Source of the DNA: Spirochaetota bacterium
GTDB lineage: Bacteria; Spirochaetota; UBA6919; CBDBPB01
Assembly: GCA_965208615.1 (NCBI GenBank)
Contig: CBDBPB010000007.1
Span: 224,001 to 288,000, forward strand
Length of the DNA stretch: 64,000 nucleotides
Direction of reading: 5' to 3'
The notes beneath the pieces are model-generated. The model saw only the letters and a program-made list of their open reading frames with translations, did no database searches and was not told the DNA's origin. Below are positions 16,986 to 48,380 of this stretch, one piece after another. The position numbers and the translations under genes are program-made. How positions within the stretch are numbered: position 1 is the stretch's first letter; each line of letters opens with the position of its first letter.

Positions 16986-18014
16986 TCATTGAGTTTGCTT
17001 ATATTTAATTTCTTTTAGAGCGTTTATTAGAAGGCTTATGGAGAGTTCATCCTTAACAGCTAACCTTATCCACTTTGAGTTTAGGGGGTAAAAGTTATCA
17101 CAAACCCTTATAAGTATTTTATATGGGGTTAATAGCTTTTGGAGTTTGTATCCGTCTATATTTTTCAATTTGACTAGGATAAAGTTAGCACAGGAGTTAA
17201 AGATTTTATCAAAGAGGTCTATTTTTATTAATTTTTGTTTTAGGATATGTTTATTTAATTTAGTTAGTTTTTTTGTTTGGTTTAAAAAGTCTTTATTTTT
17301 GATAGCTTGGTTTAGGTAGTGCATATCTAGTGAGGATAACTTCCACGGTGGTTCTGTTTTTCGTATTTCTTTTATGTTATTTTTGCTTGATATAACACAT
17401 CCTATTCTTAGCCCAGCACAGGCAAATATCTTACTAAAAGATTTTAATATAAACATATTATCATTTACTAAGGGTAGAGCGGACTCATAATCGGTAAAGT
17501 CTAAGAAGGACTCATCCAGTAATATATTGGCATTTTTTGTTTTCCATTCTGATAAAAATGTTTTTATATTGTATAGTTGTCCATCTGGTGTGGATGGGTT
17601 AACAAAGACCACAAGAGAGTTTTTAGTTATATTTTTGTTTATGTTATCCAGGCGATTAATTTTGTTTATTTTGCAGTTTAGGTTATTGGCTATTTTCATA
17701 TATTCCGTATAGATGGGTAGATATAGGCTAACGTTTTTGGGGTTTATGTATTTAAATATAGAATATATACCAGAGCTTGCCCCGTTATAGAACTCTATAT
17801 CGCAATGACTGGGCAGATTAAAGAACTTGGATACATTAATTTTTAGTTCTTTATAGTTTGGCTCTGCATAGGCTGATAGGTTAAGGTTTTTCATATTCAT
17901 ATTGACGTTTGGGCTTATAAAGTTAACGTTGGACGAAAAGTCTATAATATCTTTTATGGGTGAGTTTATCTTATTGGCAAATGAGTATATATTTCCACCG
18001 TGATCGTAGTTCAA
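16986..18014 (-). CDS. cobD: L-threonine-O-3-phosphate decarboxylase (PLP, class I/II aminotransferase fold)
   Basis: HGGN...IIDFSSNVN N-terminus, NPSTPDG, DESFLDF, SFSKIFACAGLRIG and IRVCDNF; lies in a cobalamin gene context. Confidence 0.82.
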   Translation of the reverse strand: MNYDHGGNIYSFANKINSPIKDIIDFSSNVNFISPNVNMNMKNLNLSAYAEPNYKELKINVSKFFNLPSHCDIEFYNGASSGIYSIFKYINPKNVSLYLPIYTEYMKIANNLNCKINKINRLDNINKNITKNSLVVFVNPSTPDGQLYNIKTFLSEWKTKNANILLDESFLDFTDYESALPLVNDNMFILKSFSKIFACAGLRIGCVISSKNNIKEIRKTEPPWKLSSLDMHYLNQAIKNKDFLNQTKKLTKLNKHILKQKLIKIDLFDKIFNSCANFILVKLKNIDGYKLQKLLTPYKILIRVCDNFYPLNSKWIRLAVKDELSISLLINALKEIKYKQTQ

Positions 18015-18053: not shown

Positions 18054-19115
18054 ATGATAGATAATATCAAAATAATACAAGGTAGCCAAGACTTCTTAAG
18101 AAAAATAAAGAATACGAGTTTTCAGTTTTTTTTAATAAGTGCCTATACAAAGACGGCTGAGATAGATAATATAACATCAGCAGGACTAGCAGGACTAGTA
18201 GAGTATACCCCGCCTTTGGATATGGAGGTATTGTATTATGGTAGGCCATTGTCCATGCCTGATATACCTAAGATGCCGTCTGGACCGCCATCTCCTGTGA
18301 TAATAACCTCTGCCATTAAGCAGTTAGTGGACTTTCCAATAAGCTATATAGATGTTGGACTTAAAATTAGACCTAAATGTCCTATAACTGTTATTCAGTC
18401 AAAGGTTGCTAAGTCTATTTTGGAGGGTTCTGATATTGACGCACAGGAGCTGTTCAACGATGGATTACGCTATGCTAGTGAGGTAAAGGATTATGCCCAT
18501 ACATTTATACTCTCAGAGTGCGTTCCATCGGGCACTACCACTGCCTATGCTGTGAGTAAGGCTTTGGGCTATTCATGTGATGACTCTTTTTCGTCGAGCA
18601 ATAGTGATGAAAAGACCAAATCCTTAAAAAGGGATGTTGTTAATAAGGCTATATCTTTGTTTGGTAAAGATGTTAAGACTGTTTTTGATGCCATAAGGTA
18701 TTTGGGTGATCCTATGCAGGCATTTTTATCTGGTATGGCTGTTGGACTTAATCAGCTTGGTAAGATGGTTATATTAGGCGGTGGGACTCAGATGCTAACC
18801 ATATACTCAATTTTAAAGAAGCTGGATAAGCCTATAGACTTTACTAATATTGCCTTAATGACAACCAAATGGGTGGCTGAGGATAAATATAGTGATATGA
18901 AGGGTTTATTAAGCCGTATAGATAAAGATTTAAACGCTTTTTATGCAGATTTTGACTTTAAGGAGTCCAAGTTTAAAAACCTTAATCTATATGATAACGG
19001 ATATGTAAAAGAGGGTGTGGGAGCTGGTTCTATAATATGTTATGCTTATTTAAAGGGTATATCTAAAAAGGCAATACTAAACCAAATAGAAAAGCTTTAT
19101 AAGCAGGTAAAATAA
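18054..19115 (+). CDS. cobT: Archaeal/cyanobacterial-type nicotinate-nucleotide phosphoribosyltransferase CobT
   Basis: ITSAG, PSPVIIT, ECVPSGTTTA, GDPMQ, LGGGTQM and VKEGVGAG motifs. Confidence 0.88.
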   Translation: MIDNIKIIQGSQDFLRKIKNTSFQFFLISAYTKTAEIDNITSAGLAGLVEYTPPLDMEVLYYGRPLSMPDIPKMPSGPPSPVIITSAIKQLVDFPISYIDVGLKIRPKCPITVIQSKVAKSILEGSDIDAQELFNDGLRYASEVKDYAHTFILSECVPSGTTTAYAVSKALGYSCDDSFSSSNSDEKTKSLKRDVVNKAISLFGKDVKTVFDAIRYLGDPMQAFLSGMAVGLNQLGKMVILGGGTQMLTIYSILKKLDKPIDFTNIALMTTKWVAEDKYSDMKGLLSRIDKDLNAFYADFDFKESKFKNLNLYDNGYVKEGVGAGSIICYAYLKGISKKAILNQIEKLYKQVK

Positions 19116-19987
19116 TTTAGACTGCTTATTGAGTGGAACTTCTTTATATATTCTTCGATATCGTTTTGTGATAGGTTAGTTTGTTTTTTAACTTTTTTCA
19201 TATATATGCGTTGAGAGCCGTAGTATAGGCAGGCAAAACGCATCCACTCTAATAGTACGTCTAGGGATATAACCATTGACGATTTACTATTATAGGTATT
19301 AATAAGCTTATCCAAAAGATTTTTATTTAGGCTACCATCCAAAAAGCACCAGTTTATGCCTATTACTGCTATATCAAAGTATAGGTCTCCATGACAAAAG
19401 TCACTAAAGTCAAATACCCTTAAGCCGTTTTTGTTAAATCTTACGTTATCCATAAATAAATCACCGTGTATAAGTACATTAGCTTTGGCTATTAGGTTTA
19501 AGCTGTCAATATGTTTTAGCATAGAGTTATAGCCTGACTCACGCAAATAATACTCAATACGCTTAGTGGTATAGATATTGTCTATTTTTTTGTTATAGTT
19601 TATGGAGTGGAGTTTAACTAAGAATAGTGCAATTTGTTTAATATTATTTTTATTAGGTTTATCTATTGTTCTACCCTCCATATAAGAGAATAGAACAGAG
19701 GGTTTATTATCCAAATGGATAAGCTCTTTACCGTTATACCCTATAACATGGGGGACATTAAGTTTTTTTAGTTTTAATAGTTTTAGTAGGTCTATCTCGT
19801 TGTTGACCTTTTTACTAGAGCTATATTCATATATTTTTAATATATAGTTTTTATTATCAGTTTTTATTAGATATGTGTTATTAGATATGCCGTTTTTGGT
19901 GGGGTATATATAGTTAGCGTTTAGGTTATAATATTCTTTTATTTTAAGTTTAATATAGTCGGTTTTGAGTTTAGTTATAATCCCCAA
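19097..19987 (-). CDS. APH-superfamily kinase (type II homoserine kinase-like)
   Basis: GISNNTY, YILKIYE, IHGDLFMDN and FDF motifs; TTG start after TAAGGA. Confidence 0.8.
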   Translation of the reverse strand: MGIITKLKTDYIKLKIKEYYNLNANYIYPTKNGISNNTYLIKTDNKNYILKIYEYSSSKKVNNEIDLLKLLKLKKLNVPHVIGYNGKELIHLDNKPSVLFSYMEGRTIDKPNKNNIKQIALFLVKLHSINYNKKIDNIYTTKRIEYYLRESGYNSMLKHIDSLNLIAKANVLIHGDLFMDNVRFNKNGLRVFDFSDFCHGDLYFDIAVIGINWCFLDGSLNKNLLDKLINTYNSKSSMVISLDVLLEWMRFACLYYGSQRIYMKKVKKQTNLSQNDIEEYIKKFHSISSLNYFTCL

Positions 19988-19997
19988 GGTTTTATCC

Positions 19998-20705
19998 TTA
20001 GTCTATGATTTTCTTTTTTGAGAAGTCTATTATGAATGACATATACTTATTCCAGTTTTGGGGTAGGTCTTTTGATATGTTTTCATTTTTAAAGCCGAGG
20101 TTCTCTATGTATGATAAATCACCAACTGGGGTGTAATTAGATAGTGCATCACCGACTTTAGGTTTCATAATGACTTTTGTAATATGGTTTGGATTATTAT
20201 TCCATGGCCTAATCTCTAATGAGGACATCCCTTGGCATAAAGACTTCTTCATTTTGGCTGAGGCATAAGAAAATGACGTTATACCAGGGATAACTAATGT
20301 ATTACTATATAGTTCTGGATCAACATCTTTTAGGTATTCTAATAAATAATATACTCTGCTAAATATTGCAGAATCACCTAAGGTTACGTAGGCGAGGCAC
20401 TCATAACGTAAAAAGCCTGTTAATAGTTCATTAAGTTGAGCCTTCCACAGGGATTTATCATATTTCATGGGGGATGGTATACCCTTTAGGATAGGGAAGT
20501 CAGTCTTTTTTATTAATATATCATTATTATCAAAAAACATAGTTTTTATGGACATTATAATCTTATATGCCCTTGAGTCTTTTATGTTATCTCTAACGGG
20601 TATGTATATGGCCTCTGAGGCTAATAAATATTTAATTGCCTTCCAAGTTAATAGTTCAGGATCACCAGGTCCTAAGGATATTATATATAGTTTTTTTTTT
20701 GTCAT
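19998..20705 (-). CDS. cbiL: (Cobalt-)precorrin-2 C20-methyltransferase
   Basis: SLGPGDPELLTWKA, YVTLGDSAIFS and VIPGITSF. Confidence 0.85.
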   Translation of the reverse strand: MTKKKLYIISLGPGDPELLTWKAIKYLLASEAIYIPVRDNIKDSRAYKIIMSIKTMFFDNNDILIKKTDFPILKGIPSPMKYDKSLWKAQLNELLTGFLRYECLAYVTLGDSAIFSRVYYLLEYLKDVDPELYSNTLVIPGITSFSYASAKMKKSLCQGMSSLEIRPWNNNPNHITKVIMKPKVGDALSNYTPVGDLSYIENLGFKNENISKDLPQNWNKYMSFIIDFSKKKIID

Positions 20706-20707
20706 GT

Positions 20708-21541
20708 TTATAGTGTTCCCATTTTTATTTTAAGTTCATCTATAAGGTTTTTTATGGTTTCTTTGACGATATCCAAGTCTAACAGGTTAAAGGGACAGTT
20801 ATCCACTTCGGCTATTAATACGTTAAAGTTTTTGGATAGGCTGTTTTCAATCTTTTTGACGTCTTTGATAAAGTGATTACCGCTTGTGAGTAATAACGGC
20901 ACTATTTTTATGGATAGCTTTTTCTTATGTACTGACTCAGCTCTTTTTACGGAGTCTATAATGGAGTCTTTTAACAAGCTAAAGTTATATATCTTTTCTA
21001 GTGAGCTAAAGAGGTTAAGTGGATTAAGTGTTGTTAAAAAGTCTTTTGCGTAGAAAACTGATTGGATACCAGATTGCTCAAAATATGGTGCACCGTGGAC
21101 TAAATATAATATTACGTCATTATAGTTTTTCCGTACATATTGGTTAATATGGTATAATATACGGCTTGTCTCATCTCCTCTTGATAAGATTGCTGGACTA
21201 AAGCGTATATCGGCTGGTGAGAATATATTAAAACCCTTAACGGTATTTTTTATTAACTCGTGTTCGTCAGTGGGGAATAGGTTTATGGAGGATGCTATTA
21301 TACGTTTATATCCTTGAAGTTCTACATCAGAGAGGGTTTGGCTTAGGTTTTTATATATAATACCTTTAGTTTTCAGGTTATTTAACACCGACCTCGACGA
21401 AAATGCCAAATGTACTGGTATATTAGTATTATTATTTTCTATATATTCTTTTAGGCTTTCGTATTTAGCCTTTTGAGGTATTGATCCAAAGGCAGATAAT
21501 ATAATTGCCGTATCTTTTTTATAATGTCTCCATCTTTTCAT
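20708..21541 (-). CDS. cbiK: Sirohydrochlorin cobaltochelatase (CbiK type)
   Basis: LSAFGS, LAFSSRSV, and the two catalytic-type His residues in LVHG and SGNHFIKD. Probable start is MKRWRH at 21541. Confidence 0.8.
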   Translation of the reverse strand: MKRWRHYKKDTAIILSAFGSIPQKAKYESLKEYIENNNTNIPVHLAFSSRSVLNNLKTKGIIYKNLSQTLSDVELQGYKRIIASSINLFPTDEHELIKNTVKGFNIFSPADIRFSPAILSRGDETSRILYHINQYVRKNYNDVILYLVHGAPYFEQSGIQSVFYAKDFLTTLNPLNLFSSLEKIYNFSLLKDSIIDSVKRAESVHKKKLSIKIVPLLLTSGNHFIKDVKKIENSLSKNFNVLIAEVDNCPFNLLDLDIVKETIKNLIDELKIKMGTL

Positions 21542-21616
21542 ATTGTCTATTCTTATTTTGTGAGTATAGGTTTGTACCCACCAATAGATAGGTACAAACA
21601 AAAACTATAATATATT

Positions 21617-22300
21617 TTATATAGAATCTGGACTATAGAGTCTTTTTTCAACGAATAGGCTGTCTTTTAAAGGGTTTAAGGTTTTTGCAAGGGCTAAAAC
21701 TCCTAAGTCTAAAAGTGGTTCTATTAGTATAACAGCTAGATATACGCTTCCAAAGGATAATACCTGAGCAGTATTGGCTATAGTAAAGCCTTGACCATAG
21801 AATGCCCAAAACATTACCCAAGCAACTATACCACCTTGATAAGCTATAGATAGTTTTAATACCTGTGAATATTTAAGATCTTTATAGGCTATGTTTTTGG
21901 GGATAACTTTTTTGGCTAATAGGTTCATTACAAAGAGCGGCATTAATAGCGTTGTTATATTGACAAAATACATTGCTAGATCAGTTTGTGAGAACAGGAC
22001 TCCCTGACATAACAGTCCAATAGCTAAGCCCAGTGAGGCGGCTGATACACCAAATAATAAGAATAACGTTGAGCCGAATATAAAGTGTACCTCTGACACG
22101 CCAACAGGAAAGTGTGGGAATACTTGAAAGAAAATAAATACTAATATACTAGTTAATATGGTTTTTAGCCCTAAGGATAAATAACCAGTCTTTTTAATTT
22201 CATTAACGGTTAGTTTTGCGGTAATAGCCAAAGACGTTATTGCTGTACCATAGCTTAATGCTAATTTAGCTCCTTGAACAACTCCTGGTTCAATGTGCAT
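21617..22300 (-). CDS. cbiM: ECF cobalt transporter S component CbiM
   Basis: MHIEPG metal-binding N-terminus, GVSEVHFIFG and multiple TM helices; has its own RBS (AAGGAG). Confidence 0.9.
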   Translation of the reverse strand: MHIEPGVVQGAKLALSYGTAITSLAITAKLTVNEIKKTGYLSLGLKTILTSILVFIFFQVFPHFPVGVSEVHFIFGSTLFLLFGVSAASLGLAIGLLCQGVLFSQTDLAMYFVNITTLLMPLFVMNLLAKKVIPKNIAYKDLKYSQVLKLSIAYQGGIVAWVMFWAFYGQGFTIANTAQVLSFGSVYLAVILIEPLLDLGVLALAKTLNPLKDSLFVEKRLYSPDSI

Positions 22301-22333
22301 AATAAACTCCTTTATAAAAGTTTTATTAAAGTA

Positions 22334-22390
22334 TTAAGGAAGTCTGACAAAGCTTTTGTATAGGTTATTAATTTGATAAGGTTTTGTCAT
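22334..22390 (-). CDS. Putative 18-aa leader peptide MTKPYQINNLYKSFVRLP
   Basis: Perfect AAGGAGG (22398-22404) 7 nt before the ATG at 22390; TAA at 22336-22334; ends 33 nt before the cbiM ATG. Confidence 0.55.
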   Translation of the reverse strand: MTKPYQINNLYKSFVRLP

Positions 22391-22397
22391 AATAGTA

Positions 22398-22508
22398 CCT
22401 CCTTTTACGGGAAAGAGATCTCTACTTAAGTATAATATACTGTGTTCCTGACTCTAACAGTTACCCGATAGTGGAGGATTCTCACCTCACTTCCACAATG
22501 TATTATAT
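22398..22508 (-). ncRNA. Compact (class II / AdoCbl-variant-like) cobalamin riboswitch
   Basis: The minus strand reads UGUGGAAGU-GAGG-UGAGAAU-CCUC-CACUAUCGGGUAACUGUUAGAGUCAGGAACACA, followed by hairpin CUCUUU-CCCGUAA-AAGGAG. Loop CGGG/CCCG kissing complementarity; sits upstream of cbiM. Confidence 0.85.
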
Positions 22509-22613
22509 TAAACAGGTTAGAATAGCAAATATATTATAAAAATATATAAAAGACAATATTTATTAAGTTTTTTTATTAATATTACTTTTAGCGAATATGT
22601 TAAATAGGCAATT

Positions 22614-23930
22614 ATGATAAAAGGTTTTATTATATCCGCAATATCGTCCAAACAGGGAAAGACACTAATAACCATGTCTTTGATGAATAAGCTAAATGCT
22701 CAATTTAAGGTATCCCCGTTTAAAAGTGGACCTGATCATATAGATACCCAATTTCATAAAAAGCTTTTGGATAAGCCATCGGTCAATCTTGATTTATTTA
22801 TGATGACTAAAACCCAGACTAAGTGGATATTTAACAACTACGCAAAAGAACTATCCATAATAGAAGGGGCTATGGGCTATTACGACGGCATAGATAAAAA
22901 AACATCCACTTATGATATTGCTAATACCATAAATCTACCCACTGTATTAGTTATATCGGCTGAGGGGTCTTATTCAACGTTATCCGCTGTGATATTGGGT
23001 ATGCTAAGCTATAAAACGGATAATACAATAAAAGGTATTATATTTAATCATGTATCCTCAGAAAGCCATTATCAACTAATAGTTAAGCAGGTTAATAAGG
23101 ATCACCCTAATATTGAGTGTCTTGGATGGGTTAAAAAGGATATAATTAATCTTAAATCGAGGCACCTTGGTTTGGACTTATCCCAATTAAACAGGCTTAA
23201 GCTTTGTGAGATGTCAGATGAGGTTTGTAAGAATATTAATATTCAAAAGCTAATTAGACTTATAAATGATAATAAGCTTACTAGAACTAATATTGACTAT
23301 CCCTTTGATAATACAAGCCTAAAAGAAAAACAGCTAACCATAATAAGTGATAGTGGTTTTTCCTTTTTGTACCACGATAATATGGAATATTTAAAAGGCA
23401 TATTTAAAAATGTTAATATAATATCCGCTCTTGATGATAATATTATACCAAAGGATAGCGATGTTGTATACATCCCTGGTGGATACGTTGAAACAGAGGA
23501 TGTATATCATAAGTTAGCTAAGGCCAATAAGTTTAAAAATAGTCTAATTGATATTTCTAGTGATAAAAAGAAAAGAGTATATGCAGAGTGCGCTGGACTA
23601 ATATATTTGGGTAATAGGTTAACGTTGTTATCCGAGGTTAGTGTTAGTATGTCTGGTATTATGCCTATGAGCTTTAGGATGAGGGTTAATAGACAGCGTC
23701 TTGGATATTATTATGCAAAAGACTTAAAGTTTAATAATATATATAAGGGACATGCTTTTCACTATAGTGAGCCTATTAGTGAGGCTAACCCAATATGGGG
23801 CTTGTCAAAGAGTATAGACTCAAAAGCTATAATGGGAGCATGGATAAGTCAAAATGTATGTGGAACGTATTTACATACTATGTTTAGGGCTAACCCTAAG
23901 ATTATAGACTTGTATTTTAATACGAATTAA
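22614..23930 (+). CDS. cbiA: Cobyrinate a,c-diamide synthase
   Basis: QGKT P-loop, FKSGPDHID, IEGAMGYYDG, SRHLGL, and glutaminase motifs YAECAG and GHAFHYS. Confidence 0.92.
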   Translation: MIKGFIISAISSKQGKTLITMSLMNKLNAQFKVSPFKSGPDHIDTQFHKKLLDKPSVNLDLFMMTKTQTKWIFNNYAKELSIIEGAMGYYDGIDKKTSTYDIANTINLPTVLVISAEGSYSTLSAVILGMLSYKTDNTIKGIIFNHVSSESHYQLIVKQVNKDHPNIECLGWVKKDIINLKSRHLGLDLSQLNRLKLCEMSDEVCKNINIQKLIRLINDNKLTRTNIDYPFDNTSLKEKQLTIISDSGFSFLYHDNMEYLKGIFKNVNIISALDDNIIPKDSDVVYIPGGYVETEDVYHKLAKANKFKNSLIDISSDKKKRVYAECAGLIYLGNRLTLLSEVSVSMSGIMPMSFRMRVNRQRLGYYYAKDLKFNNIYKGHAFHYSEPISEANPIWGLSKSIDSKAIMGAWISQNVCGTYLHTMFRANPKIIDLYFNTN

Positions 23931-23945
23931 TTATTTGGTGGACAA

Positions 23946-24632
23946 ATGAAGATAAAAAACTTTTATATTAAAAAGCCGTTAATCATTAATGCCGGTGATA
24001 TTGAAAAGCTATCCCTTAAGGCGGTTGAAGATAAGTGTATTAGTTTTAAACGGTTTAATGGTTTTGACAAAATGCAAAAAGAAGTTGTTAAACGGCTAAT
24101 ACATAGTACAACTTGCTTTGATAGGGTTATTAACAATATATACTTTACTGATAATGCTATAACCAGTATTATAGGGCATATTAAGGACTCAGCCAGTATA
24201 ATTGTTGATACTAATATGATTAAATCTGGTCTTAGTAGTTATTATACGGATAAATATAATAATGAGGTTATATGTCATGTATCCGATGATGACATAAAGG
24301 CTGAGGCAGGCCAAAAGGGTCTAACTAGGAGCTATTTAGCTGTACAGAAAGCTCTTAAGGATAATTATAATAAAAAGGTGATATTAGCTTGCGGTAATGC
24401 ACCGACTTTTTTATACTCAGCTGTTGAGGCTTTACTAAAAAACGATTGGGATTTATCCAAAGTAATTATATTGGCTTTCCCGGTGGGCTTTGTTAATGTG
24501 GTAGAGAGCAAAGAGTATACTAAAGACTTTTTAAGTTATTTTAATATGGATGGTATTATATTAGAGGGTAGTTTTGGCTCATCCCCGTTGGTGATTGCCT
24601 GTTTGCATGCCGTATATAGACAGATAGCTTAA
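23946..24632 (+). CDS. cbiC: (Cobalt-)precorrin-8 methylmutase
   Basis: RLIHST, GNAPTFL, PVGFVNVVESKE and GSS motifs. Confidence 0.9.
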   Translation: MKIKNFYIKKPLIINAGDIEKLSLKAVEDKCISFKRFNGFDKMQKEVVKRLIHSTTCFDRVINNIYFTDNAITSIIGHIKDSASIIVDTNMIKSGLSSYYTDKYNNEVICHVSDDDIKAEAGQKGLTRSYLAVQKALKDNYNKKVILACGNAPTFLYSAVEALLKNDWDLSKVIILAFPVGFVNVVESKEYTKDFLSYFNMDGIILEGSFGSSPLVIACLHAVYRQIA

Positions 24633-46685: not shown

Positions 46686-48380
46686 TTGAATGATAAACAA
46701 AAAAAATTAAAGAAAAAAAAAGTAAGTTCTATAAAAATATTACCTCTTGGCGGGTGTAATGAAATTGGAAAGAATTGTACAGTTATAGAATATAAAGATG
46801 AGATAGTCGTTATTGATTGTGGGGTTATGTTCCCTGAGTCTGGGATGCACGGTATTGATCTTGTTATTCCTGATATGACTTATTTGTATAAAAACTCTAG
46901 TAAGGTAAAAGCTATTCTTCTTACCCATGGACACGAGGATCATATTGGTGCATTGCCATATTTAATTAAGATAGTTAATGCTCCTATATATGGTGGAAAG
47001 TTTACATTGGGCTTATTAGAGAATAGGCTTAAAGAACACGGACTCTTTGAGCAGGTTGAATTAAATATTACTGAATATAGAAAGCCTTTTAAAGTAGGAT
47101 CATTTAATATTGAGTTTGTTAAAACTACTCATAGTATTGCTGATAGTGCCGCTATATTACTTGATACTCCTTTGGGTAAGGTTTTGCATACTGGGGATTT
47201 TAAGATTGACCATTCTCCTATTGATGGAAAGCCATTCGATTTTTATCGATTTGCAGAGTTAGGAGAAAATGGTTTATTGGCTTTACTCTCTGATAGTACT
47301 AACATTAATAAGGATGGATATACCTTATCTGAGAAAGTTATTTATCAGGTATTAAGGGATGCATTTAGGCGTACAAAGGGACGTATTTTTATTGCTACTT
47401 TTGCCTCTAACATTCACAGAATTCAGATTGTCTTTGATGTTGCTAAAGAGTTTAATAAGAAAGTTGCTGTATCAGGGCGTAGTATGGAAGGAAATATACA
47501 GATTGCTAAAGAGCTTGGTTATTTAAGCTTTTCTGAAGATGTGCTTCATCCAATTGAAGACTTAAAAAGTATGTCTCGTAATCATACTGTACTTATTACT
47601 ACTGGTACTCAGGGTGAGCCTATGAGTGCTTTATCTCTTTTAGCAAATGAAAAACATAAGTGGTTAATGATTGAAAAAGGGGATATGGTAATAATTTCTG
47701 CTAGTGTTATACCCGGTAATGAGAAGGGTGTATCAAAGATCATTAACAGTCTTATGAAAGCAGGGGCAAACGTTATTTATGAGGCTATTGAGGATATTCA
47801 TGTTTCTGGACACGGTTGTAGAGAAGAGCTTAAAATGATGATTAGTCTTGTTAGGCCTAAGTTTTTTATACCTATTCACGGAGAATATCGTCATTTAGTT
47901 AATCATTCAAAGATGGCTAGTTTATTGGGTATACCTGAGAGTCGTATTCAGGTTTTAGAGAATGGGGATATGGTTGAAATCACTCCTAATAGTATGGTTA
48001 GGAGTGGATATATTGATTGTCAGCAGGTATTTGTTGATGGTAAGGGCGTTGGAGATATTGGTACTAAGGTAATTCGTGATAGACAGGTATTATCAGAGGA
48101 TGGTATTGTTGTTGTTATTGTTACTAACCAGCCTAAAAACGGTAAAAAGGTTTATAAGCCCGAGATTATATCTAGAGGTTTTGTTTATATTAAGGATTCA
48201 AGTGAGATTTTTAAAAAGGCCGAAAATCTAGTATTAGATATTGCAAAAGAGTATAGTAGTAATGGTTTAGAAAATGATTTTAATAGTTTTAATAATAAGA
48301 TTAGGATGACTCTTAGGGACTTCTTTTATAAAGAGACTCGGCGTAAGCCAATAATTATTACTAGGATAATTGAAAAGTAG
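46686..48380 (+). CDS. rnj: Ribonuclease J
   Basis: LGGCNEIGKN, THGHEDHIG, TGDFKID, HVSGH and PIHGEYRH. Confidence 0.95.
   Translation: MNDKQKKLKKKKVSSIKILPLGGCNEIGKNCTVIEYKDEIVVIDCGVMFPESGMHGIDLVIPDMTYLYKNSSKVKAILLTHGHEDHIGALPYLIKIVNAPIYGGKFTLGLLENRLKEHGLFEQVELNITEYRKPFKVGSFNIEFVKTTHSIADSAAILLDTPLGKVLHTGDFKIDHSPIDGKPFDFYRFAELGENGLLALLSDSTNINKDGYTLSEKVIYQVLRDAFRRTKGRIFIATFASNIHRIQIVFDVAKEFNKKVAVSGRSMEGNIQIAKELGYLSFSEDVLHPIEDLKSMSRNHTVLITTGTQGEPMSALSLLANEKHKWLMIEKGDMVIISASVIPGNEKGVSKIINSLMKAGANVIYEAIEDIHVSGHGCREELKMMISLVRPKFFIPIHGEYRHLVNHSKMASLLGIPESRIQVLENGDMVEITPNSMVRSGYIDCQQVFVDGKGVGDIGTKVIRDRQVLSEDGIVVVIVTNQPKNGKKVYKPEIISRGFVYIKDSSEIFKKAENLVLDIAKEYSSNGLENDFNSFNNKIRMTLRDFFYKETRRKPIIITRIIEK

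Follow-up and report, generated by a model that had tools for sequence, protein, structure and literature searches.

Which reading frame is served by the Shine-Dalgarno sequence (SD) that a cobalamin (vitamin B12) riboswitch hides? In the usual picture, a translational riboswitch hides the SD of the gene that it regulates. The locus analysed here is found on the minus strand of a 64,000-nucleotide (nt) stretch of DNA from a Spirochaetota bacterium (assembly GCA_965208615.1, contig CBDBPB010000007.1, positions 224,001 to 288,000), called the window below and numbered from its first letter. An earlier note, made from the letters of the window, had claimed that the SD in the regulatory hairpin of a B12 riboswitch belongs to a small open reading frame (ORF) in the leader, and had inferred that B12 blocks the translation of this mini-ORF and that the mini-ORF may relay the signal to the first gene of the operon, which it named cbiM. 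All the positions that it gave were confirmed on the minus strand, namely those of the loop AUCGGG, the hairpin, AAGGAGG, the ATG at 22390, the TAA, AAGGAG and AGACUUCCUU. From 5′ to 3′, the elements of the leader are the following.

22528–22556, minus strand: promoter-like site, TTGTCT, a 17-nt spacer and TATATT (a consensus match alone, 9/12)

22433–22510, minus strand: class-II cobalamin aptamer (Rfam AdoCbl-II, RF01689)

22464–22469, minus strand: L5 loop AUCGGG, with CGGG (22467–22464) as the kissing-loop partner

22399–22417, minus strand: P13/L13 regulatory hairpin CUCUUU-CCCGUAA-AAGGAG, with CCCG in the loop complementary to CGGG of L5

22396–22404, minus strand: gated SD AAGGAGGUA, within and after the 3′ arm of P13, with AAGGAGG at 22404–22398

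22334–22390, minus strand: leader mini-ORF, opened by ATG, 18 codons long (MTKPYQINNLYKSFVRLP) and closed by TAA at 22336–22334

22336–22345, minus strand: candidate anti-SD AGACUUCCUU, in the last codons of the mini-ORF

22300–22328, minus strand: weak local hairpin around the SD of the first gene (CUUUU:AGGAG plus an AU stem; pair probabilities 0.65–0.95)

22307–22312, minus strand: the first gene's own SD, AAGGAG, 6 nt before the ATG at 22300

An Rfam covariance scan bore out the claim of a B12 aptamer. The match to RF01689 scored 42.1 bits (E 1e-06, gathering score 36.5) and covered model positions 1–81 of 81; it was the sole gathering-level RNA family match within the window, and the copy in the window is the only one in the whole 2.46-Mb genome. 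In an alignment of nine related copies, a small sample from a single clade, 8 of the 23 predicted aptamer pairs stay paired despite changes on both sides. Folded as a whole, the 236-nt stretch had a minimum free energy no lower than that of its shuffles (z = 0.76), so the case for a riboswitch was built on the covariance model and the comparison of copies, and not on folding energy. The P13 hairpin begins 15 nt 3′ of the aptamer and is present in the centroid fold. CGGG in L5 and CCCG in L13 are invariant in all nine copies, and every copy likewise has TTCCCG and the GGAG arm; the linker and the remainder of the loop vary (MAFFT misaligned the 3′ arm of P13 in the alignment of copies). The 5′ arm of P13 alternates between CUCUUU and CUUCUU with its pairing kept, and the SD arm is constant; therefore, the SD sequence is constrained in itself and not merely as one side of a stem. 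Other spirochaete lineages (L008, L014, L029 and L022) have CGCG in both L5 and L13, which would amount to a compensated kissing-loop change between lineages (CGCG/CGCG versus CGGG/CCCG). Membership in AdoCbl-II agrees with the B12- and cobalt-related genes found downstream in the window and in its relatives. The element is almost certainly a genuine class-II cobalamin riboswitch, and it would be expected to bind cobalamin.

The gated SD, read with its preceding A, is AAAGGAGGU, a 9-nt perfect complement to the 3′ end of the 16S rRNA, which was located in the same genome and ends in ...CACCUCCUUU. The start codon that follows the gated AAGGAGG after a 7-nt spacer is the ATG at 22390, which opens the mini-ORF. 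The ATG of the first gene is 90 nt away from it and 33 nt beyond the TAA of the mini-ORF. The sequence thus confirmed that the gated SD belongs to the leader ORF and not to the first gene, and this layout recurs at eight loci.

These loci were collected in two ways. A DNA search of 40 relatives returned the aptamer and the hairpin in two other genomes of the same order, and an aptamer-only, downstream-blind 24-mer pattern returned seven metagenome contigs. After merging duplicates there were eight distinct loci: the window, L003, L159 (with a variant, L154), L155, L156, L157, L158 and L160. In the five nearest genomes (G000–G004), a 24-mer with up to three mismatches found no aptamer copies beyond the four known. 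A 15-mer from L5 was too short to be selective; a scan of the genome collection with it gave at least 118 stretches, and the 3 of the 118 listed that passed a simple aptamer filter were all known loci of G001 and G002. At all eight loci the gated SD stands 73–261 nt upstream of a main start that has its own SD. A canonical start codon is found 5–8 nt past GGAG at seven of the eight (five of six lineages), L003 being without one. The background frequency of AGGAG followed by a start at that spacing is 800/3968 genome-wide (0.20, true gene starts counted), which gives a binomial P = 0.0016 for five of six lineages. The main genes differ, being of CbtC type in the window, cbtB-like in L003 and L157, and CbiC-like in L156; they code for TonB-dependent receptors in L155, L158 and L160 and for a secreted protein in L159. 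The mini-ORFs of the seven loci are 18, 7, 9, 3, 3, 9 and 9 codons long. When L158 is compared with L160, and L156 with L157, conservation spans the promoter through the mini-ORF and collapses past the stop codon.

In other spirochaete lineages, an SD 12–32 nt past the aptamer opens a long ORF at seven of seven loci (L008, L013, L014, L017, L024, L029 and L034). Over all 28 other loci of the phylum, the first SD-plus-start opens a long ORF at 17, and most of the remaining ones are partial class-I matches or are without an SD in range. The recurrence at all eight distinct related loci supports the view that the layout is functional. In this clade, a gated SD that serves a mini-ORF appears to be the rule, and it is this clade-wide sharing that would be new. 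The start of the mini-ORF is probably a gated, functional element, from which translation would proceed when the SD is free.

The mini-ORF of the window is non-conserved, shares its frame with the next gene, and has a proline codon directly before the stop. Its TAA is the sole stop between the leader ATG and the gene ATG (open frame of 238 amino acids (aa) versus 227), a point in favour of what the earlier note had raised as a possible refutation, that the mini-ORF is a decayed remnant. It would then be left over from an N-terminal extension of the transporter encoded by the first gene, or from a deleted upstream gene, after a nonsense mutation. By our estimate, a shared frame without a further stop in 11 codons arises by chance about once in eight. 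The product of the first gene has thousands of homologues, and all 119 among the matches listed (own entry excluded) are 225–232 aa long, with 60–81% identity at 97–100% coverage; the six that were fetched all begin with MHIEPG, as the product itself does. Because the homologues begin in the same way, the gene's true start is the ATG at 22300, and the mini-ORF is no lost N-terminus. Moreover, the first gene has its own AAGGAG, and the same layout precedes unrelated genes at seven other loci. The homologue lengths and the MHIEPG starts contradict a decayed remnant, and this reading was rejected as hardly credible; the shared frame looks coincidental, since the homologues have no N-terminal extension. 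Stop-codon read-through of the TAA would add a 30-residue extension to the transporter.

How, then, would a riboswitch that hides the SD of a mini-ORF control the operon behind it? The best-supported mechanism is a relay by ribosomes from the mini-ORF to the operon, and for this window our belief in it and our doubt are evenly matched. With B12 bound, the kissing loop between CGGG of L5 and CCCG of L13 would lock P13 and hide the 9-nt SD together with the ATG at 22390. Without B12, ribosomes would initiate at 22390, read 18 codons that have no conserved meaning and terminate at the TAA at 22336–22334. The terminating ribosome, possibly slowed by the proline before the stop, would cover the leader segment that pairs best with the downstream initiation region. 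It would also reach the weak hairpin around the first gene's SD at its 5′ base, which lies 6 nt beyond the stop of the mini-ORF. Once the region was opened, or the ribosome handed over, the transporter, cbiK-like, cbiL-like and kinase genes would be expressed.

Pairing between the end of the mini-ORF and the main initiation region was assessed locus by locus by shuffling the segment within reach of the ribosome 1000 times with its dinucleotides kept. In L155, an 11-base pair (bp) perfect complement of the main initiation region starts 3 nt past the stop of the mini-ORF, with its target about 85 nt downstream (pairing energy E −14.0, p = 0.003). In L159, a complement of 11–12 bp (11 bp perfect) also starts 3 nt past the stop, with its target about 200 nt away (E −16.8, p = 0.046). 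In L003, which has no mini-ORF, a 10-bp complement is located directly past the gated SD (p = 0.002). The value for L157 was p = 0.34. Masking of the main initiation region is strong there (1st percentile); the helix responsible begins 9 nt past the stop, and the strongest single duplex partner starts 14 nt past it. Fisher's combination over the eight loci gave p = 0.0019. A sliding-window scan placed the start of the strongest partner −20 to +10 nt from the stop at six of the eight loci, the window included (Poisson-binomial P = 0.007, for an interval chosen after seeing the data). These complements strongly support, in L155, L159 and L003, a relay that would act on a masked downstream initiation region.

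The ends of the mini-ORFs share another trait. Proline is present within the last three codons in three of the four lineages with mini-ORFs of at least seven codons (p about 0.03 against their own composition), the peptides ending in ..RLP in the window (22334–22342), ..KIP in L159, ..NPPG in L158 and ..HPPC in L160, each directly before the stop. Proline before a stop codon slows termination, and such a pause may hold the ribosome over the downstream complements.

In the window, a ranking of 54 leader segments by their pairing with the downstream initiation region put AGACUUCCUU first (−10.2 kcal/mol, with the median at −5.3), and its position is where the relatives carry their anti-initiation elements. 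Its possible partners are the gated SD, the downstream SD and codons 5–7 of the next gene. The earlier note had proposed that the tail of the small ORF pairs with the ribosome-binding region of the first gene (AGACUUCCUU:AAGGAGUUU). Its rank among leader segments and its position are in keeping with this, but the pairing was no stronger than that of the shuffles (E −8.0 versus a null of −8.0 ± 2.0, p = 0.445).

That value is the first of several results that weigh against the relay. The initiation region of the window is at the 19th–22nd percentile of accessibility among 600 genes of its own genome, and the local hairpin around the SD has little stability (−3.9 kcal/mol at 37 °C, −9.0 at 15 °C). 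In the modelled free, P13-locked and terminating-ribosome states, exposure of the SD was 0.39, 0.39 and 0.42, and that of the initiation region as a whole 0.37, 0.36 and 0.55. In L158 and L160, no anti-initiation element was found near the stop (p = 0.97 and 0.88) and the main initiation regions look open (83rd–85th percentile); in L156 the pairing was not significant (p = 0.23). The lengths of the mini-ORFs are those expected by chance for AT-rich sequence after a start codon, and the peptides are unrelated save within the pairs L158/L160 and L156/L157; therefore, only initiation, and not the product, looks selected. The eight loci are themselves related, with only 5–6 independent lineages, all from one clade.

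The two-tier switch of the earlier note thus gains from the complements of L155, L159 and L003 and loses from the barely changing SD exposure in the window. Of the conservation of a short ORF and an anti-SD, which that note had named as a check, the start codon is there at seven of the eight loci, while the sequence of the ORF is not conserved and the complement is significant at three of the eight. The relay appears well supported in three relatives, and in the window by position alone, where it may depend more on proximity (the 33-nt gap) or on polarity. L158 and L160 may use another relay. In L158, whose leader of about 235 nt is GC-rich and structured, the strongest partner lies 56–79 nt past the stop.

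The unrelated peptides and chance lengths also agree with another view, in which a block of promoter, aptamer, P13, SD and ATG spreads as a unit, the short frame is a by-product of chance without a role in a relay, and downstream regulation is weak, absent or otherwise achieved. Conservation blocks that stop at the stop codon of the mini-ORF fit such spreading, as does the sharing of the promoter and the 5′ half of the aptamer by L157 and L159 before different genes, and the fact that L154 and L159 differ only in the 5′ aptamer half. However, the SD, the kissing-loop bases and the start codon are intact at all loci despite differing spacers (the canonical start codon excepted in L003), the downstream genes are all B12- or cobalt-related (CbtC type, cbtB-like, CbiC-like and TonB-dependent receptors), and the long stop-adjacent complements of three loci are left unexplained. 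We consider a mere by-product quite improbable.

In the pair L157 (cbtB-like) and L159 (secreted protein), the promoter and the 5′ aptamer half are identical and the sequences then diverge; L154 equals L159 downstream and differs in the 5′ aptamer half, with compensated changes in P4. These mosaics suggest recombination between riboswitch copies or chimeric assemblies.

The pairing possibilities of AGACUUCCUU also admit a switch made of RNA only. In such a three-part switch, the gated AAGGAGG would act as an SD mimic that pairs with CUUCCUU and frees the downstream SD; once B12 has locked P13, CUUCCUU would pair with the downstream SD or with early codons, and no translation of the leader would be needed. 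The minimum-free-energy fold of the leader only does contain the 7-bp pairing AAGGAGG:CUUCCUU, this state is isoenergetic with the P13-locked one (−19.3 versus −19.2 kcal/mol), L003 is without a canonical start codon past the gated SD, and Brachyspira-like loci such as L007 appear to use an anti-SD platform of RNA only. However, seven of eight loci have a start codon at optimal spacing (P = 0.0016 by lineage), and in L155 and L159 the anti-initiation elements pair with the main region over 11 bp but with the gated SD over no more than about 6 bp. During transcription, the local P13 hairpin would fold first, and the modelled P13 lock left the exposure of the downstream SD unlowered (0.39 versus 0.39). 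A switch without leader translation is, on these points, fairly improbable.

A further explanation keeps the gating of the leader by the riboswitch and replaces the last step by polarity. A leader empty of ribosomes, C-rich and G-poor, would be subject to termination by Rho, ahead of the first gene or within it, or exposed to RNases Y and J, and translation of the mini-ORF would prevent this. The genome encodes Rho (Rho_RNA_bind, 122 bits, in a 467-aa ORF), and RNases J and Y are present while RNase E/G was not found in the genome, which makes a Bacillus-type RNA decay set. The leader of the window has 15 C and 5 G in 86 nt, a skew of 0.50 (top 5% among 1028 upstream regions from its own genome), and the skew is at least 0.20 in six of the eight distinct loci. 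No intrinsic terminator was seen in the leaders, that of the window included, so any attenuation would be factor-dependent. L158 and L160, which are without an anti-initiation element, need another relay in any case, and, according to the parts of PMC11260477 and PMC5028336 that were consulted, the outputs of translational riboswitches include Rho and mRNA abundance.

Several facts speak against polarity as the general link. Mini-ORFs of three codons (L156 and L157) cannot shield leaders of about 100 nt, the main start being 101–104 nt past the gated SD. The relatives range in skew from −0.11 to 0.78, with values near zero or negative in L160 (0.05) and L158 (−0.11); a rut site is undefined in a genome of 31% GC; and the 10–11 bp complements of L155, L159 and L003 are left unexplained. 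We judge polarity unlikely, with a real chance nonetheless of accounting for this locus. Under relaxed terminator rules, only P13 followed by AT-rich sequence was picked up in three relatives and was judged to reflect composition, not a terminator. A variant was also considered in which a ribosome bound at the 5′ SD blocks RNase J, an idea from work on Bacillus. The enzymes are present, but an aptamer that is more structured with B12 predicts stabilisation in the OFF state, and the idea was merged into polarity. The RNase J gene itself is in the window (RNase_J_C, 91.6 bits, about 48069–48374 on the plus strand, within a 574-aa ORF).

Returning to the relay, the eight loci can be read together as copies of a portable B12 cassette in a lineage of marine-sediment spirochaetes. 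Such a cassette would consist of a promoter, a class-II aptamer, an SD under kissing-loop control and a mini-ORF of any length, with the terminating ribosome as the carrier of the signal; an element a few nucleotides from the stop or the gated SD would mask the true start at a distance of up to about 200 nt, and it would be melted only without B12. We put this generalisation forward tentatively, as one that falls somewhat short of being the probable account.

Leader ORFs that pass on a signal are known from other systems. In plasmid R1, kissing by the CopA antisense RNA blocks the tap leader ORF, and translation of tap opens the masked repA initiation region; there the regulator is an antisense RNA and not a metabolite aptamer, and tap overlaps repA. 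In the tnaC, mgtL/mgtA and corA leaders, access of Rho to a C-rich leader depends on the ribosome that translates a short leader ORF. In those cases the ribosome senses an amino acid or a peptide, whereas here the riboswitch would decide whether ribosomes load. The element resembles class-II cobalamin riboswitches (AdoCbl-II or 'AdoCbl-variant', env8 HyCbl type) in its full-length match to RF01689, its L5-complementary loop and the SD in the 3′ arm of the hairpin. It differs in that, here and at seven related loci, the hidden SD serves a frame of 3–18 codons or none, 73–261 nt upstream of the regulated gene. According to the consulted part of PMC5028336, a cobalamin-dependent L5-L13 kissing loop controls ribosome loading and mRNA abundance.

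The nearest precedent is the M. tuberculosis ppe2 B12 riboswitch, which gates the upstream ORF (uORF) uPPE2, whose translation is essential for PPE2, as excerpts of the report describe (Kipkorir et al. 2024, PMC11260477). By the same excerpts, it is likewise a B12 riboswitch of class II type that acts as a translational OFF switch on a uORF, and uPPE2 is also proline-rich at its end. It differs in that the stop of the uORF overlaps a start without SD, whereas here a gap of 33 nt (up to about 230 nt in relatives) separates the stop from a start that has one; the ppe2 arrangement (a main ORF without SD, its start overlapping the uORF stop, NUGA) is absent from the window. As the excerpts present it, ppe2 is a single locus, whereas here the design is shared by a clade and the link in the relatives would be a long-range complement just past the stop. 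In S. meliloti, the SD within the SAM-II metA riboswitch is needed for translation that starts 74 nt downstream, according to the abstract (2022, PMC9373788). The likeness is that an SD internal to the riboswitch is required for distant downstream translation. The riboswitch class is another one, its authors suggest a standby-type mechanism and a terminator between two AUGs, and a mini-ORF with an anti-initiation element is absent from the abstract. Upstream ribosome-binding sites of S. meliloti were surveyed in 2026, and the consulted part of that survey includes the metA case (PMC13285730). In the literature searched, supplementary files aside, there was no clade-wide class-II cobalamin riboswitch design that gates mini-ORFs with stop-adjacent complements; the supplements of PMC11260477 and PMC13285730 might hold comparable cases.

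In ppe2 and metA, then, the hidden SD belongs to something other than the regulated gene at single loci, and here this holds for a whole clade, at eight loci with various cobalt and B12 genes, with mini-ORFs as short as three codons and with long complements right past the stop or the gated SD at three loci. If the relay is correct, it provides a simple, testable rule for riboswitch action over 70–260 nt and would explain how a riboswitch cassette can be copied before new genes. Annotation pipelines would have to allow for a first ORF past a riboswitch that is not the regulated gene. The design would amount to plug-in translational riboswitch control for any gene, without rebuilding its initiation region, and to a natural counterpart of engineered translational-coupling devices. 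The start codon, the stop codon and the 11-nt complement offer experimental handles.

The genes behind the riboswitch and around it are the following.

21617–22300, minus strand: first operon gene, a stand-alone CbiM-family membrane protein of CbtC type (predicted cobalt transporter), 227 aa (Pfam CbiM, 54.5 bits)

20708–21601, minus strand: CbiK-like cobaltochelatase-family gene (Pfam CbiK, 57.5 bits; NCBIfam, 31.9 bits, far below the cut-off)

19998–20705, minus strand: CbiL-like tetrapyrrole methyltransferase (Pfam TP_methylase; TIGR01467 cobI_cbiL, 95.1 bits, below the cut-off of 163)

19097–19987, minus strand: APH-family, homoserine-kinase-like kinase (113 bits, below the cut-off)

18054–19115, plus strand: CobT-like phosphoribosyltransferase (TIGR00303 above the cut-off; no Pfam match)

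16986–18014, beside the kinase gene: CobD-like decarboxylase

22614–24632, plus strand: cbiA/cobB-like and cbiC operon, divergent from the riboswitch operon

The gene names of the earlier note therefore needed adjusting. Membership of the first gene in the CbiM family stood, but its product is far below the NCBI CbiM equivalog cut-offs and is better described as a CbtC-type stand-alone protein; cbiN, cbiQ and cbiO genes are not beside it, and one listed homologue is named 'Predicted cobalt transporter CbtC'. For cbiK, cbiL and the kinase, the names correspond to family matches below the cut-offs. The closest listed homologue of the first-gene product, P0002 (81% identity), is encoded on a 1970-nt contig. 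No homologue at E ≤ 1e-10 was found in 150 other sampled genomes of the phylum, named homologues outside it are from Arcobacter and Hyphomicrobiales, and the thousands of homologues elsewhere suggest that the CbtC-type gene may have been acquired horizontally. The kinase may be the L-threonine kinase of cobamide synthesis, with the CobD-like gene beside it; the CobT-like gene is convergent with the kinase gene and overlaps it by 19 nt. The operon would combine cobalt uptake with early and late steps of cobamide synthesis.

Between the 5′ end of the riboswitch and the start of the divergent cbiA/cobB-like and cbiC operon there are about 100 nt, and no riboswitch belonging to that operon was detected within the window. 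Since the two operons diverge across about 100 nt, their promoters must stand back to back. The promoter-like site would put the start of the transcript just upstream of the aptamer; a promoter scan of the region gave 10 such sites against 6.9 expected.

Two other arrangements were seen elsewhere in the phylum. In one genus, six class-II loci (L007, L009, L011, L031, L032 and L035) have a different platform, a GAGUGCA...UGCACUC hairpin whose 3′ arm runs into ACUCCUUU, an anti-SD complementary to the main SD 30–80 nt downstream; it looks like a relay made of RNA only. In L023 (G003, same class), a P13-like hairpin CCUU-CUUGGAUU-GAGG has an SD-like 3′ arm with no start codon after it, and the first SD-plus-start of a long ORF lies 130 nt past the aptamer. 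L023 may hold a further gated SD that acts at a distance.

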